DNA of 64,000 nt from Actinomycetes bacterium (lineage in GTDB: Bacteria > Actinomycetota > Acidimicrobiia > Acidimicrobiales > RAAP-2): the NCBI GenBank assembly GCA_021806045.1, contig JAJZDI010000007.1, positions 42,803-106,802 on the forward strand. Reading direction: 5' to 3'. A program made the position numbers and the translations under genes. Of this stretch, positions 6,943 through 20,908 are shown piece after piece (within the stretch, counting starts at the first letter, position 1; every line of letters starts with the position of its first letter). A model generated the notes under the pieces. That model was not told the DNA's origin and did not search any database. It saw nothing but the letters and a program-made list of their open reading frames with translations.

Positions 6943-9507
6943 ATGACCACCCATCCCCCCGCGAGCGATTCCGAGCGCGTCGCCGAGGGTGCCCCCGGGC
7001 CCGGCCCGAACAGCCCGAACAGCTCCGAGGGCGCGAGCGACGACCGGCGGGCGCTCCTCCGGGCCGCCCTCGACGCCCCCGACGAGTACCCCGCCGACCG
7101 GTTCTCCGGGCGCGGCATCGTCATCTGCGCCGGCGGGGCCCGCCTCATCACCGGCGCCTGGGTGACGATCAACGTCTTGCGCCGCACCCTCGGGTGCACC
7201 CTCCCCATCCAGGTGTGGCACCTGGGGACCGCCGAGCTGGGGCCGTTCGAACGGACCCTCTTCGAGGACCTGGGGGTGGAGGTCGTCGACGCGGCCGAAG
7301 TACGGCGGACCCACCCGGTCCGCCTCCTCGGGGGCTGGGAGCTCAAGCCCTACGCGCTGGCCCACTGCCGCTTCGCCGAGGTCCTCCTCCTCGACGCCGA
7401 CAACGTCCCCGCAGCCGACCCGACGCCCCTCTTCGACGCCTGGCAGCTGGACGAGGGGGGCGGTGCCGCCTTCTGGCCCGACGTCGAGCGCCTCACCGAG
7501 GCCAGCCCCATCTGGGACCTGGTCGGCCTCCCCTACCGGCCCGTCACCTCGTTCGAGACGGGCCAGGTCCTCCTACGCAAGGCGGACGTGTGGCACCCGC
7601 TGATGGTGGCCCTGCACCTGAACGCCCACTCCGACCTCTACTACCGGTACCTCAACGGGGACAAGGACACCTTCCTCTTCGCCTGGCTGCTCACCGGGCG
7701 CCGCTGGGCCATGCCCGGCACGCCCCCCCAGGTCCTCTCCCACACCGTCTACCAGCACGACTTCGAGGGACGGGTGACCTTCCAGCACCGGACCGGCGCC
7801 AAGTGGGTGCTGCGCGGCGACAACCGCGCCGAGCCCGGGTTCGCCCTCGAGGCCGAGTGCCTGGCCTACGTGCGTGAGCTCCGCGCCCTGTGGTCCGGGC
7901 GCATGGTCCGCATCCCCGAACGGTCCCCGGCCGCGCAGGACGCCGAACGTGTCCTGGCCACGACCCGGTGGTTCAGCTACGAGCGCCTCGGCGCCGACAC
8001 CCGGCTCCTCGAGCTCCGCAACGGCCACCGGGTCGGCCGGGGCTTCAGCCCGCACGAGCGTGCCTGGTATGTGGAGGATGGAACGGACGCCGGACCCGAT
8101 GAGCCTGATGGACCTGCTGGCGCCGACCCTGGCGGACCGGCCGGACCGCCGGCCGCGCTCCGGCTCGTCCTCCTCGGCGACGACAGCGTCACCTGCCGCC
8201 TCACCCCCGGCGACGACGGCACCTGGCGGGGAACCTGGGAGCACACACCTGGGTTCGAGGTGGAGCTCACCCCCGTGCACGAGGAAGCTGGCGTCGCTGG
8301 CGTCAATGGCAGCGCCGTTGGCACCGGCGGCGCGGTCGACATCGCCACCGGGAACGTCCCCGGCGCCAGCGGTCCCGTCCCCGGCGCACCGATGGAGGCA
8401 CCGACCCCGGTCGGCCTCGACACCGACCAGGTCCGCGGCCTGCTGGCCCACCTGTCGGCCGGCGGGCGCACCGGGGCCGAGCGTGACGCCATGGTCACCA
8501 CACTGGCCACCCTCGCCGGCGCCTTCCCCGGGCTCACCGCCCGGCTACGCCACGAGCTCACCCTGTGGGAGGCGAGAGGCGACGAGCTGGTGTGCGACGC
8601 CATCAGGGCCGCCATCGACGAGGCGGACCGGCAGGACGCCCGGGCCGGTACCCCGTCACTGCACGGGCGGCGCAACCCGGGGGCACGGCCCGAGGGGTCC
8701 CGGCCCGAGTGGCGCTACGAGCCCCTGCCCTCGCCCCCGGCGGCCACCGATCCCCGGGTGCTGGTGCTCACCCCGGTGAAGGACGCCGAAGAACACCTCG
8801 ACCGCTACTTCGAGCTGCTCGGCCGGCTCGACTTCCCGCCGGACCGCCTGTCGCTGGGCATCCTCGAAGGTGACAGCACCGATGGCACCTGGGCCGCCCT
8901 GACCGCCCGTCAGGGCGAACTGCGCCGCCGGTACCGCCGGGTGACGCTCCTCCGGCGGGACTTCGGGTTCCGGCTGCCGCCCGGCGTCCCCCGCTGGAAC
9001 CACGCCTTCCAGCTGGCCCGCCGGACGGTCCTGGCCCGGGCCAGGAACCACCTCCTCGTCGGTGCCCTGGGCGACGAGGACTGGGTCCTGTGGCTCGACG
9101 TGGACGTGTGCGACTACCCCCCGACCGTCCTCCGCGACCTGCTCGCCGCCGGCCGCGACATCGTCCAGCCCCACTGCGTGGTGGAGTACGGCGGGCCCAC
9201 GTTCGACTGGAACGCCTGGCGGGAGCACGGTCAGGTGCGGATGGACCAGCTGCGGGGCGGCCCCGACCTGATCCGCCTGGACGCCGTGGGCGGGACCATG
9301 CTCCTGGTGCGGGCGGACGCCCACCGCAACGGGCTCGTCTTCCCCCCCATGCTCTACGGCGGTGGGAGCCGGTGGGCGCGCGACCCCCACCCCGTGTTCC
9401 GTGCTCCGGGCGAGGTCGAGACGGAGGGCCTCGGGATCATGGCCAAGGACATGGGCTACGAGTGCTGGGGCATGCCCAACCTCGAGATCGTCCACGCCGA
9501 CCGGTGA
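6943..9507 (+). CDS. Bifunctional glycosyltransferase: GT71-like (Mnn1/Mnn2-type) N-domain fused to GT62-like (Mnn9/Anp1-type) C-domain
   Basis: The N-domain (~7108-7830) has GIVICAGG...LPIQVWH, LLLDADN, ETGQVLL and GDKDTF. The C-domain (~8754-9504) has VLVLTPVKDAEEHL, WVLWLDVDV, AVGGTMLLVRADAHRNGLVFPP and ETEGLGIMAKDMGYECWGMPNLEIVH. No signal peptide or TM segment is present. Confidence 0.75.
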   Translation: MTTHPPASDSERVAEGAPGPGPNSPNSSEGASDDRRALLRAALDAPDEYPADRFSGRGIVICAGGARLITGAWVTINVLRRTLGCTLPIQVWHLGTAELGPFERTLFEDLGVEVVDAAEVRRTHPVRLLGGWELKPYALAHCRFAEVLLLDADNVPAADPTPLFDAWQLDEGGGAAFWPDVERLTEASPIWDLVGLPYRPVTSFETGQVLLRKADVWHPLMVALHLNAHSDLYYRYLNGDKDTFLFAWLLTGRRWAMPGTPPQVLSHTVYQHDFEGRVTFQHRTGAKWVLRGDNRAEPGFALEAECLAYVRELRALWSGRMVRIPERSPAAQDAERVLATTRWFSYERLGADTRLLELRNGHRVGRGFSPHERAWYVEDGTDAGPDEPDGPAGADPGGPAGPPAALRLVLLGDDSVTCRLTPGDDGTWRGTWEHTPGFEVELTPVHEEAGVAGVNGSAVGTGGAVDIATGNVPGASGPVPGAPMEAPTPVGLDTDQVRGLLAHLSAGGRTGAERDAMVTTLATLAGAFPGLTARLRHELTLWEARGDELVCDAIRAAIDEADRQDARAGTPSLHGRRNPGARPEGSRPEWRYEPLPSPPAATDPRVLVLTPVKDAEEHLDRYFELLGRLDFPPDRLSLGILEGDSTDGTWAALTARQGELRRRYRRVTLLRRDFGFRLPPGVPRWNHAFQLARRTVLARARNHLLVGALGDEDWVLWLDVDVCDYPPTVLRDLLAAGRDIVQPHCVVEYGGPTFDWNAWREHGQVRMDQLRGGPDLIRLDAVGGTMLLVRADAHRNGLVFPPMLYGGGSRWARDPHPVFRAPGEVETEGLGIMAKDMGYECWGMPNLEIVHADR

Positions 9508-19108: not shown

Positions 19109-20908
19109 GTGAGCGACCAATCGCAGGGCGCCGGGTGGTGGCAGGCGTCTGACGGCAAGTGGTACCCGCCCGAGCTGCACCCAGGGGCCGCGGCGGTTCC
19201 CCCTCAGGTGCAGGCACCGGCGCCCACACAGGCACCAGCACAGACACCACCACCCTTGCAGACGCCAGGGCCTGTGGCCGCGCCGCCATCGCCAGGGTGG
19301 TGGCAGGCGTCTGACGGCAACTGGTACCCGCCCGAGCTGCACCCGAGTGCGCCGGCCGGGCTGCAGGTGCCCTCGACACCCCCGTCCGGATTCGCCACCG
19401 GTCCTGCCGGACCCGCCGGTCCGTTCGGGTCCGGTCCGTTCGCTCCGTTCGGGTCCGGTCCGGCCGGCACGATGCTTCCCCCGGCCGTTGCAGACGCCGG
19501 ACGGTCACGTGGCCGCCGGAACCGGACGATCCTCGTCGCGGCGATCGTCGTCCTCCTGATCGCAGGAGGTGCGGGGGTGGCGGTCGCCGACCACTCGTCA
19601 CCCACGTCGGCGCCGACGACGACGGCGGCGTCGGCGCCGACGGCGGCGGGGCCCGCCATGGGGACGCTCGACGTCCTCGGCGGCCCCGTGGCCGGCGGCG
19701 GGCACGCCATCGTGATCGACGTGACATCCGACCTCCACATGGAGCTGAGTGCCGTCGACCCCAGGAGCTCGCGGGTCGCGTGGCAGCAGCCGTTCTCCGC
19801 GTCGGAGATCACCCCCGGCGAGCCGTTCACCCCGACCGTCATCGGCAACGTCGTGATCGACCTCGCCCCGACGGGCGCGCTCACCGATCCGGCGGTGTCG
19901 ATCGAAGGGATCGACGCCACCACCGGTGTCGTACGCTGGACCTACGCAACGCCGGGCATCGCACTGGACGCACCCGTTCCCTGTGCCGGCGCCGGGACCT
20001 TCTGTCTCTCGTGGGTGACAGCTGCATCGACGTCGAGCAGCCTCATCGAGGTGAGCGCCACCACCGGGTCGTTGGTCCGCACGATCCCGAACATCGAACG
20101 CCAGCTCGGCACCGACGTCTACCAGACGGGGTCCACCACGCCCACGGTCATCCAGCTCGGCTCTCAGGGCCAGGTCGTCTGGCAGAAGGGGACGGCGTCC
20201 ATCTTCGGCTCCACCAACGACGTCCCCGACCAGGGGTGGAACATCGACCGCTTCGGGAGCATGAACGTCGGAAGCCTCGGTTCCGCACCGACGGGCAACG
20301 TGGAGGACCTCGGGTCGTCGACGACGACGGGGTTCTCCATCGCCACCGGAACGCCACGGTGGACGGACCCGGGGCTCTACAACTGCATGGGGCCGCTCGA
20401 GTTCCTGTCGACGCCGGTGATCTGCCGCCTGTCCGGCACGGTGACGGCGCCGTCCACCCCCAACGGCACACCGACGTTCTCCGGGCTCGCCCTGCAGATC
20501 GAGGGGTTCGACACGCAGACGGGGACGATCACCTGGAGCCAGCCCGACACGAACATCCAACCCATGGTGGGCTCCGGCGCCATCCCGTTCCTCGACGGCG
20601 ACCACATCGTCGTGCAACAGCACGGTGGCTTCGTGGTCCTCGACACGCAGACCGGCACGGTCGCCCCGGTACGCACCGGCGAGGTCTTCTGGTGCGCGAC
20701 CACGCCTACGGTCAACGTGGCCGTGCCGGCCGGCTCGGGCTATCCGGGCAACCGGACCGCCACTGATCGCTTCTCCGGCTGCACGGCCGACGGCACGCCC
20801 AGCACGGCTACCCACCCGGCCAACCAGCCGAGCGCCGTCGGGGTCACCATCAACGGGATCTTCCTCTGGCCGGGCCAGCACGGCCTGAGCTCCGAACGCG
20901 CGTCCTGA
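19109..20908 (+). CDS. Membrane-anchored protein: 2 x DUF2510-like (GWWQASDGxWYPPE) N-terminal repeats, one TM segment, extracytoplasmic beta-propeller-like domain
   Basis: GTG at 19109 with GGGAGGG 9 nt upstream. The TM segment is ILVAAIVVLLIAGGAGVAV. The C-terminal ~420 aa are Thr/Gly/Val-rich and propeller-like. Confidence 0.65.
   Translation: MSDQSQGAGWWQASDGKWYPPELHPGAAAVPPQVQAPAPTQAPAQTPPPLQTPGPVAAPPSPGWWQASDGNWYPPELHPSAPAGLQVPSTPPSGFATGPAGPAGPFGSGPFAPFGSGPAGTMLPPAVADAGRSRGRRNRTILVAAIVVLLIAGGAGVAVADHSSPTSAPTTTAASAPTAAGPAMGTLDVLGGPVAGGGHAIVIDVTSDLHMELSAVDPRSSRVAWQQPFSASEITPGEPFTPTVIGNVVIDLAPTGALTDPAVSIEGIDATTGVVRWTYATPGIALDAPVPCAGAGTFCLSWVTAASTSSSLIEVSATTGSLVRTIPNIERQLGTDVYQTGSTTPTVIQLGSQGQVVWQKGTASIFGSTNDVPDQGWNIDRFGSMNVGSLGSAPTGNVEDLGSSTTTGFSIATGTPRWTDPGLYNCMGPLEFLSTPVICRLSGTVTAPSTPNGTPTFSGLALQIEGFDTQTGTITWSQPDTNIQPMVGSGAIPFLDGDHIVVQQHGGFVVLDTQTGTVAPVRTGEVFWCATTPTVNVAVPAGSGYPGNRTATDRFSGCTADGTPSTATHPANQPSAVGVTINGIFLWPGQHGLSSERAS

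Follow-up and report, generated by a model that had tools for sequence, protein, structure and literature searches.

We analyzed a block of ten co-directional genes (g1 to g10, Table 1) in a window of 64,000 nucleotides from an actinobacterium of the Acidimicrobiales (GenBank assembly GCA_021806045.1, contig JAJZDI010000007.1, positions 42,803 to 106,802); positions are counted from the first nucleotide of this window. The block had been predicted from its sequence to couple cytoplasmic glycosyltransferases to a giant surface propeller protein encoded by g7. Our results favor another partner. The genes g1 to g6 and g8 appear to form a widespread, leader-guided glycosylation cassette that acts on a ribosomal peptide, the product of g5, a reading to which we assign a probability of about 0.6. 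Since g7, g9 and g10 are missing from distant loci in which homologs of the other genes recur, the conserved functional unit, as judged by homology, is g1–g6 plus g8 and not a ten-gene system around g7.

The proposed substrate, which the original prediction had labeled a Tat (twin-arginine translocation) peptide, is translated from a GTG start codon preceded by a good Shine-Dalgarno sequence, AAGGGGGG. Its leader comprises residues 1–39 (12311–12427) and carries a twin-arginine-like DRREFVRR stretch followed by the invariant AFAVPVVASF motif (DRREFVRR...GAAFAVPVVASF). Residues 50–52 form a predicted ASA site of the signal-peptidase type. The remaining tail, residues 53–91 (12467–12583; TPEPAFASNQEVPPLDMPILGHRGYIPYAYHPYQVGLDD), contains no Cys and has a Tyr/His-rich end. 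Among close relatives the peptide is better conserved than its neighbors, with an identity of 87–92% as compared to 72–86% for g4.

Word-indexed homolog searches with g4 and g5 returned close relatives only; the distant family was reached by a profile search and by pattern scans for the leader motif. The best distant relative of g4 is P0006, with 33% identity. Its soil contig has the order PqqD, HprK-related protein, GT2-TPR glycosyltransferase (the g6 type) and a 165-residue protein. The first 39 residues of the latter, MSDDEFEAEVVKRVGMDRRTFVRRLLLGSAFAVPVVASF, are homologous to the N-terminus of g5 and the rest is unrelated. The leader-motif scans yielded 8 loci from genomes and 36 from metagenomes. 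The 44 distinct motif-bearing peptides that were recovered, 41 of them complete, conform to the consensus [KR]R..[FLM]...G.AFAVPV[VI]ASF, in which nine columns are invariant across phyla (R19, A30, F31, V33, P34, V35, A37, S38 and F39), and their tails are unrelated.

These tails are hypervariable, and their length past the ASF motif ranges from 15 to 313 residues. Some extend merely 6–13 residues beyond the predicted cleavage site, for example QVANGSGVVPTPT, and others are built of repeats such as (EPNQG)n, HPNQTTGNQ, SPNTT and GSNETDG. The leader is also found fused to full-size domains (Ig-like repeats, CLIPPER/DUF11 and beta-helix-like; 9755–11056 in locus L022, 1468–2316 in L042, 9229–9708 in L056 and 8351–8974 in L057). 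Because whole folded domains follow the leader, the system seems to handle proteins besides short peptides, in line with an export of cargo in the folded state. Several loci carry 2–4 tandem copies of the leader peptide, including L017 (three), L045 (four) and L028 (three); these arrays lie at 9871–10593, 10082–10870 and 847–1967, respectively. The predicted mature parts in the alphaproteobacterial loci L017 and L045 are near-identical and very short (QVANGSG..., 10–14 residues), and the three copies in L028, an unassigned metagenome locus, have Thr-rich tails of 61–83 residues. A PqqD-like element in the cluster and a conserved leader with a hypervariable, often multi-copy core are what is expected of ribosomally synthesized peptides that are modified post-translationally (RiPPs) of the type that uses a RiPP recognition element (RRE). 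No leader protease or exporter occurs in the unit of the window, and neither is conserved among the neighbors in related loci.

The leader family was found in about 50 loci, always beside the cassette, in Actinomycetes, Acidimicrobiia, Thermoleophilia and Alphaproteobacteria. Loci with a named source come from Actinomycetes, Solirubrobacterales, Ilumatobacteraceae, Devosia, Phreatobacter and another alphaproteobacterium. The peptide gene adjoins homologs of g6, g3, g2, g4, g8 and both halves of g1, in varying order and orientation. The presence of each gene was called with phmmer and hidden Markov models (HMMs), and counts were made over the 17 non-redundant loci of at least 10 kb (Table 1). 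A leader open reading frame (ORF) was also present within a few kb in all six loci that were retrieved independently of the leader, namely L009 and L054 via g4 relatives and L055–L058 via g6 relatives; L055 comes from a complete genome labeled Actinospongicola halichondriae. No description of the cassette, of its leader motif or of bacterial GT62/GT71 proteins in such a context was found in the literature.

The loci also contain variable extra partners, which include a GT10-like fucosyltransferase, an NAD-dependent epimerase, a nucleotidyltransferase (L055) and other methyltransferases. ORFs that by eye resemble GT10 alpha-1,3-fucosyltransferases lie beside the cassette in six loci (L013, 11432–12313; L015, 13270–14298; L017, 14021–15031; L031; L033; L045), and an NAD-dependent sugar epimerase does so in four. 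The recurrence of fucosyltransferase-like and epimerase genes in some loci suggests that glycan composition varies between lineages.

Homologs of g7, g9 and g10 were found in none of 41 non-redundant distant loci. The relatives that have them are all close (identity of 65% or more) and share the entire neighborhood. Synteny of the complete block, which the original prediction had proposed as a check, was observed in relatives with 65–100% identity and did not extend beyond them, where only homologs of g1–g6 and g8 recur. Since unrelated flanking genes are conserved in these close relatives as well, wherever there is enough sequence to tell, their synteny (L001–L008 and L010) carries little information on function and was set aside as functional evidence.

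That the acceptor would be a ribosomal peptide or protein and not a lipid carrier, as had been anticipated, is supported by the sequence and fold of g6, by the lack of a primer, flippase or polymerase, and by the peptide gene in the related loci. The catalytic domain of g6 gave GmaR as the best match in a PDB sequence search (E = 8.5e-25) and also matched SunS (1.3e-10). An AlphaFold (AF2) model computed from a 40-sequence alignment had a predicted local distance difference test score (pLDDT) of 91. When this model was submitted to Foldseek the best matches were full-length SunS and ThuS, with E-values of 4.8e-17 to 4.6e-15 over ~405 columns (SunS 7msn, 4.8e-17; ThuS 7msk, 3.2e-15), and TarP and AvpGT came next at ~1e-7. 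Of the predicted GT2-TPR architecture, the GT2 domain was confirmed by Pfam and the TPR part is indicated by a sub-threshold TPR_2 match (23.9 bits, cut-off 27) together with the helical C-terminal half of the structure model. The GT-A DAD motif is invariant in the g6 family, which comprises at least 987 clusters at E ≤ 1e-10. The SunS equivalog model TIGR04195 scored 42.5 bits against a cut-off of 350 and covered the catalytic domain only. By sequence and model, g6 thus classifies as a peptide or protein glycosyltransferase of the SunS/ThuS/GmaR-like type that is not a SunS equivalog.

The g3 product matches the PqqD family (PF05402) with 31.8 bits, above the cut-off of 23.4, and shows weak matches to the HPr-rel-A model PqqD_rel_X (TIGR04353, 23.7 bits, cut-off 35) and to the lasso PqqD models. 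Assignment of g4 was less direct. Its own match to TIGR04352 was insignificant (E = 0.09, 11.9 bits; equivalog cut-off 200), and the word-indexed search gave five homolog clusters only, all of them close relatives with the same neighborhood. A profile of the 5 close homologs was run against 1.84 billion representatives and detected 269 relatives, and 29 of the 40 aligned members that were scanned match TIGR04352 (HprK_rel_A), with E-values down to 2.5e-18, which bears out the earlier HprK-like label. An AlphaFold model of g4 from a 5-sequence alignment had a pLDDT of 42, too poor for family assignment, so the profile searches are what places g4, as a divergent member, in the HPr-kinase-related superfamily. 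The Walker-A Lys of g4 is replaced by Val (Val136, in GWGAPGVTT); this Val is invariant in the five close homologs and also occurs in a subgroup of relatives. HprK-related proteins were found by HMM in 19 leader loci. As the P-loop lysine is missing, the part that g4 plays alongside g3 is here probably non-catalytic, that of a scaffold and not of a kinase. The same PqqD/HprK pairing was seen in another architecture in the locus of P0010 (JGI 3300047160), where a gene for a 769-residue protein, with an HprK-related C-terminal domain and a region with a faint methyltransferase match, adjoins a PqqD gene, a GlcNAc-transferase-like gene and genes for two large AAA_16 proteins.

The remaining enzymes of the cassette appear suited to glycan elongation and capping. 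The N-terminal domain of g1 (roughly residues 56–330) belongs to Mannosyl_trans3 (GT71; 3.5e-23, 82.8 bits against a cut-off of 22) and its C-terminal domain (roughly residues 600–854) to the Anp1/Mnn9 family (GT62; 3e-43, 148.6 bits, cut-off 28.8). The C-terminal half also matches Mnn9 in the PDB (3zf8, 3.4e-17). In L016, L017, L022, L044, L045 and L058, each half is encoded by a gene of its own next to the leader peptide. The g2 product matches Pfam Glyco_trans_1_4 (1.9e-21) and has a (TGTS)n/(TG)n low-complexity linker between its two Rossmann halves, encoded by 9.6 copies of a 12-nt unit at 10324–10437 (Tandem Repeats Finder). Its relatives vary in length between 469 and 495 residues, so the linker looks hypervariable. 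The g8 product is an FkbM-family protein (PF05050, 1.5e-14; TIGR01444, 1.7e-24), and homologs of g8 at three alphaproteobacterial loci (L016, L017 and L045) are neighbors of GT62/GT71 genes. A hydropathy scan revealed neither membrane nor signal segments in g1, g2, g6 and g8. With this GT62/GT71/FkbM content a mannose-rich, methylated glycan is plausible.

In the mechanism that we propose, the 91-residue g5 peptide is the substrate and its leader would be bound in the cytoplasm by the PqqD-type g3 in the fashion of an RRE. The g4 protein, lacking the P-loop lysine here, would work with g3 as a likely scaffold, and the g3/g4 complex would present the variable tail to g6. The first sugar would be added by g6, most likely at or beside the recurrent Asn motif (S-N-Q, Asn61 here). 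The soluble g2 (GT4) and g1 (GT71 + GT62 fusion) would then extend the glycan, probably with mannose because the fungal GT62/GT71 homologs build mannan, and g8 would cap it by sugar O-methylation. Finally, the leader may act as a Tat signal, such that the finished glycopeptide is exported and released by signal peptidase. Passage through Tat and signal peptidase would explain why a dedicated exporter, protease, flippase and lipid primer are missing.

Two steps of this scheme can be compared with the composition of the peptide family. The tails are rich in Asn (7.6%). Counts of N-x-S/T (37 observed, 19.9±3.7 in shuffled sequences) and of [SP]N (67 observed, 20.8 in shuffles) are raised, with internal repeats inflating both, and in 23 of 30 non-redundant tails an Asn occurs within the first ten residues after the predicted AxA cleavage site. 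For export, g5 has the anatomy of a Tat signal, with the DRREFVRR stretch, a moderately hydrophobic h-region (Kyte-Doolittle hydropathy, KD, 1.83, below the values of about 2.4–2.8 for the hydrophobic segments of g7 and g10) and the ASA site. AxA-type sites recur 8–17 residues past ASF across the leader family, and the second Arg of the twin-arginine motif is invariant. The motif reads RRxF in Actinobacteria and KRxx[LM] in alphaproteobacterial and several unassigned metagenome loci. With the Tat-signal model TIGR01409 the g5 relatives scored at best 14.7 bits, below the cut-off of 16.7, and formate_TAT gave E = 0.04.

Several observations weigh against the proposed scheme. Most loci were retrieved by means of the leader motif, so that the count of leaders is biased, and the independently retrieved loci offset this only in part. 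The sole Asn of the g5 tail, Asn61 in SNQ (12491–12493), lies outside any N-x-S/T sequon, the L034 tail has no Asn, and the tails in L027 and L028 are Thr-rich with little or no Asn. Moreover, a Cys just precedes the PNQ motif in many tails, so that Cys, Ser or Thr could take the place of Asn as acceptor. We treat Asn as a tentative acceptor, and rather doubt that it is the modified residue. The first Arg of the twin-arginine motif is changed to Lys and the Phe of RRxF is lost in L013, L016, L017, L045 and several metagenome loci, and g5 itself matches no Tat-signal model (TIGR01409 or PF10518) or other model in the libraries searched. Leader-directed export through Tat is, in our estimate, a nearly even proposition that leans slightly to the negative. 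An HprK-related gene is present in just 8 of the 17 long loci, and many of the encoded proteins keep an intact P-loop. Finally, g7 sits inside the operon between g6 and g8 with its ATG overlapping the g6 stop codon, and some functional tie of g7 to the cassette is conceivable.

The same genes could serve an envelope polysaccharide pathway, perhaps mannan-like, with primer, flippase and exporter encoded elsewhere, g5 as a small membrane-anchored regulator or scaffold, and g3 and g4 in regulation or assembly. Several glycosyltransferases together with an FkbM protein are indeed found in O-antigen or mannan loci, and the best NCBIfam match of g2, below the cut-off, is stp1, a glycosyltransferase of the PEP-CTERM/XrtA exopolysaccharide system. 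The models HprK_rel_A and PqqD_rel_X are curated, according to their names, as a paired 'HPr-rel-A system', and this pair tends to occur in exopolysaccharide regions. The hydrophobic segment of g5 could anchor it in the membrane. However, a priming transferase, Wzx/Wzy or ABC exporter was conserved in none of the related loci, and the full-length fold of g6 is nearest to SunS and ThuS, not to polymer synthases. The g5 family is precursor-like, with hypervariable Asn-rich repeat tails, tandem arrays, AxA sites and domain fusions, features that a scaffold would not require. We consider the polysaccharide pathway quite improbable.

The original prediction itself had envisaged a dedicated mannosylation/methylation system for the surface protein g7, the overlap of the g6 stop with the g7 start reflecting coupling of enzyme and substrate. 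Apart from this overlap and the position of g7 between two cassette genes, there are Thr/Ser/Pro-rich linkers near the g7 N-terminus, and GmaR and SunS, the relatives of g6, act on proteins or peptides. The arrangement is retained in close relatives, but these share unrelated flanking genes too, so that its retention says little. The lack of g7 homologs in all 41 distant cassette loci is difficult to reconcile with such a role, and g7 carries no AFAVPVVASF-type leader. At its N-terminus g7 has a Sec-type anchor of strong hydrophobicity (KD 2.36), whereas g1, g2, g6 and g8 lack membrane and signal segments; with g7 anchored and the enzymes cytoplasmic, enzyme and folded substrate would end up on opposite sides of the membrane. 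The dedicated g7 system is accordingly very improbable to us, and a role of g7 as conserved acceptor, judged from homology, unlikely. The surface protein and/or the Tat peptide had been named as acceptors; only the peptide, the partner found in every related locus across phyla, stands up. As to g7, it may be a mere passenger or else a partner specific to the lineage, such as a binding protein.

Least probable of all is that the peptide is phosphorylated or otherwise modified without a glycan by the PqqD/HprK-related pair, the glycosyltransferases serving a separate substrate: a PqqD beside an HPr-kinase-like protein is reportedly a lasso-peptide cluster layout, in which the kinase phosphorylates the precursor peptide, many HprK-related proteins of the cassettes keep GK[TS] P-loops, and a nucleotidyltransferase is additionally present in L055, but the P-loop lysine is lost in g4 of the window, HprK-related genes are found in 8 of 17 long loci as compared to 16 of 17 for GT2-TPR, which is usually directly beside the peptide gene, and the unit has no lasso cyclase or protease. 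A lasso-peptide cluster as such was rejected because the cyclase and protease are lacking, and a mycofactocin-like pathway because there is no radical S-adenosylmethionine enzyme.

The leader-guided glycosylation of g5 remains our preferred interpretation, and g7, g9 and g10 are by their distribution predicted to be lineage-specific genes that were recruited into, or placed beside, the operon in one clade. The g7 product consists of the N-terminal hydrophobic anchor, DUF7948, SBBP propeller repeats, IPT/TIG and C-terminal GYWLV..DGGVFAFG repeats. A recent tandem duplication of 390 nt (130 residues) with 92% identity occurs in the last region (16334–17088). On contig L001 (4674–7607), where the g4 product is identical to that of the window, g7 is 130 residues shorter (977 and 1107 residues, respectively), which suggests either that the number of repeat copies varies between near-identical strains or that the assembly collapsed. 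The g9 product contains a possible PD-(D/E)XK motif (GRADIV...LVLEVK). The label PD-(D/E)XK-like, given earlier to this protein, found only sub-threshold matches (HSDR_N, 0.1; PDDEXK_9, 0.37) and none in the PDB or PADLOC; as PADLOC gave no match, g9 was rejected as a defense-system gene. The g10 product carries two GWWQASDGxWYPPE motifs, a Pro-rich linker, one transmembrane segment (residues 137–164, KD 2.83) and an extracytoplasmic PQQ_2-type beta-propeller (PF13360, 7.6e-10). Of its earlier description as a DUF2510/propeller protein the propeller was recovered, whereas DUF2510 was not detected by Pfam even though the two motifs are visible. The GTG start of g10 at 19109 differs from automatic calls in relatives (443 residues) and is supported by conservation with L010 from the ribosome binding site onward, with in-frame indels only.

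The window has a G+C content of 67–76%, at which spurious ORFs are frequent, and genes were therefore called by a frame-plot of G+C at third codon positions (GC3) and explicit ORF extraction. Both reproduced the ten predicted genes, all on the + strand, and the predicted junctions of 64, −11, −4, 0, −8, −1, 59, −4 and 101 nt were matched exactly. The block is bounded upstream by a divergent P-loop gene and downstream by a convergent 2-oxoglutarate-Fe(II) oxygenase gene, which ends 48 nt past g10. Scans for internal promoters and terminators gave no signal above background in the block, and hairpin scans of the three larger gaps were equally uninformative, so that a single transcript is neither supported nor contradicted by them. 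The gene layout suggests that the ten genes may be co-transcribed; g10 is possibly a transcription unit of its own given the 101-nt gap. Pfam gathering scores were exceeded for the earlier labels of g1 (GT71 and GT62), g2 (GT4), g3 (PqqD), g6 (GT2), g7 (DUF7948/SBBP/TIG), g8 (FkbM) and g10 (PQQ_2). Direct Pfam, NCBIfam, PDB and PADLOC searches gave no significant match for g4, g5 and g9.

Table 1. Genes of the block and other features of the window, with the number of non-redundant loci of at least 10 kb (out of 17) in which homologs were detected.
Feature	Position	Strand	Description	Long loci with homolog
Upstream boundary	6255 to about 6815	-	divergent P-loop gene	
g1	6943..9507	+	854-aa GT71/GT62 fusion	GT62 (C-terminal half) 11/17; GT71 (N-terminal half) 6/17
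g2	9572..11017	+	GT4 glycosyltransferase	12/17
g3	11007..11342	+	PqqD-family protein	15/17
g4	11339..12310	+	divergent HprK-related (kinase A-like) protein	8/17
g5	12311..12586	+	91-aa putative precursor peptide ('Tat peptide')	17/17 (leader peptide)
g6	12579..13799	+	GT2 with C-terminal TPR-like helical domain	16/17
g7	13799..17122	+	1107-aa exported surface propeller protein	0/17
g8	17182..18069	+	FkbM-family methyltransferase	3/17
g9	18066..19007	+	313-aa cytoplasmic protein, no family match	0/17
g10	19109..20908	+	599-aa membrane protein with PQQ_2-type beta-propeller	0/17
Downstream boundary	20957 to about 21590		convergent 2-oxoglutarate-Fe(II) oxygenase gene	
Polysaccharide island	41946–57111		Wzy_C, GT2, GT4, FkbM, sulfotransferase, CysN-CysC, CysD	

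As had been stated before, none of the ten genes encodes Wzx/Wzy, an ABC exporter or a priming transferase according to Pfam, and a classical polysaccharide island does exist elsewhere in the window, at about 41.9–57 kb. This island contains Wzy_C, two GT2 and two GT4 glycosyltransferases, a second FkbM protein, a sulfotransferase, and a CysN-CysC fusion with CysD, a gene content that suggests a sulfated, methylated surface polysaccharide. The left flank of the window (1–5500) has a G+C fraction of 0.67–0.68, lower than the 0.72–0.76 of the ten-gene block (6000–21000). The 64-nt gap between g1 and g2 (window 9501–9580) is itself built from a 24-nt unit, CCGGTGACCGGCCCGGACCGGACC, present in 3.5 copies. 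The GC-rich hairpins into which the copies fold are no better than those of shuffled sequence.

If the proposed scheme is correct, many soil, freshwater and sludge bacteria would secrete glycopeptides or glycoproteins by a non-textbook route that combines RiPP-style leader recognition, cytoplasmic assembly of several sugars and export by general machinery. The route would span at least four classes in two phyla, with a key enzyme family of at least 987 protein clusters. The orphan PqqD/HprK-related pairing would gain a function, and the GT62 and GT71 enzymes that build mannan in fungi would have bacterial counterparts acting on peptide-linked glycans. The system may also supply a compact, leader-addressable glycosylation toolkit for engineering. 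It lends itself to direct tests, since the complete cassette measures less than 8 kb and the substrate 91 residues. In its fullest form the scheme amounts to a new class of pathway, in which a Tat signal peptide doubles as RiPP-style leader that a PqqD/HprK-like module reads, a SunS-like GT2 enzyme starts an Asn-linked or Asn-adjacent glycan in the cytoplasm, GT62/GT71 enzymes build a methyl-capped mannan and the product leaves through Tat, without lipid carrier, oligosaccharyltransferase, dedicated protease or transporter. That all of these elements apply together is unlikely in our judgment.

By analogy, the cassette would work most like a glycocin pathway. In the glycocins (among them sublancin with SunA/SunS, thurandacin with ThuS, and glycocin F) a GT2 enzyme that carries a helical peptide-binding domain at its C-terminus attaches sugar to a ribosomal peptide in the cytoplasm; likewise, the g6 model matches SunS and ThuS best and the peptide gene adjoins the glycosyltransferase gene. 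Other glycocin hallmarks are not shared. Glycocins are O- or S-linked, disulfide-stapled hairpins with a Cys-containing helix-loop-helix core, and their clusters are marked by a double-glycine leader, a PCAT (peptidase-containing ATP-binding transporter) exporter/protease and disulfide oxidoreductases (PMC12457901). The cassette, in contrast, is without double-glycine leader, PCAT transporter and thiol-disulfide oxidoreductase. The g5 peptide lacks Cys, no GG motif precedes its tail, and the unit has no ABC, C39 or thioredoxin-type gene. Further to the glycocin-like parts, the cassette has a PqqD protein, an HprK-related protein and several glycosyltransferases for elongation, so that the product would be an oligo- or polysaccharide and not just one or two monosaccharides.

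GmaR, the flagellin O-GlcNAc transferase of Listeria, is the best solved-structure sequence match of the g6 catalytic domain. It has a GT2 + TPR architecture and modifies a protein in the cytoplasm before export. Its substrate is flagellin, which leaves through the flagellar apparatus, and GmaR doubles as an anti-repressor; to our knowledge it has no leader peptide, PqqD or HprK-like partners. For g3 and g4 the closest parallel is the HPr-rel-A system (HprK-related kinase A, TIGR04352, and the PqqD-family peptide chaperone TIGR04353), which shows the same adjacency of PqqD and HPr-kinase fold. The scores of g3 and g4 are far below the equivalog cut-offs, however, and g4 lacks the Walker-A lysine. 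No published function of the HPr-rel-A system was found in the literature. Lasso-peptide clusters share the PqqD/HprK pairing as well, but these require a cyclase and a protease, which the cassette does not have.

Dedicated loci with several glycosyltransferases that modify a dedicated substrate in the cytoplasm before export are also known for the serine-rich-repeat adhesins, which use accessory Sec, and for the HMW1C-type N-glycosyltransferases. HMW1C modifies Asn in N-x-S/T, the sequon in which the cassette tails are enriched. The enzymes are of other families (GT41 in the case of HMW1C, GtfA/B in that of the adhesins), accessory Sec genes are absent from the cassette, and the cassette substrates are mostly short peptides with a conserved Tat-like leader. 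Finally, g1 carries both domains of the fungal Golgi system, in which the GT62 mannan polymerase (Mnn9/Anp1/Van1) acts besides Mnn1-type GT71 enzymes. In fungi these enzymes are type II membrane proteins and face the Golgi lumen, whereas g1 is a soluble bacterial fusion without membrane segment. The fungal enzymes lengthen glycans that proteins already carry, in agreement with the peptide-linked glycan proposed here for g5.

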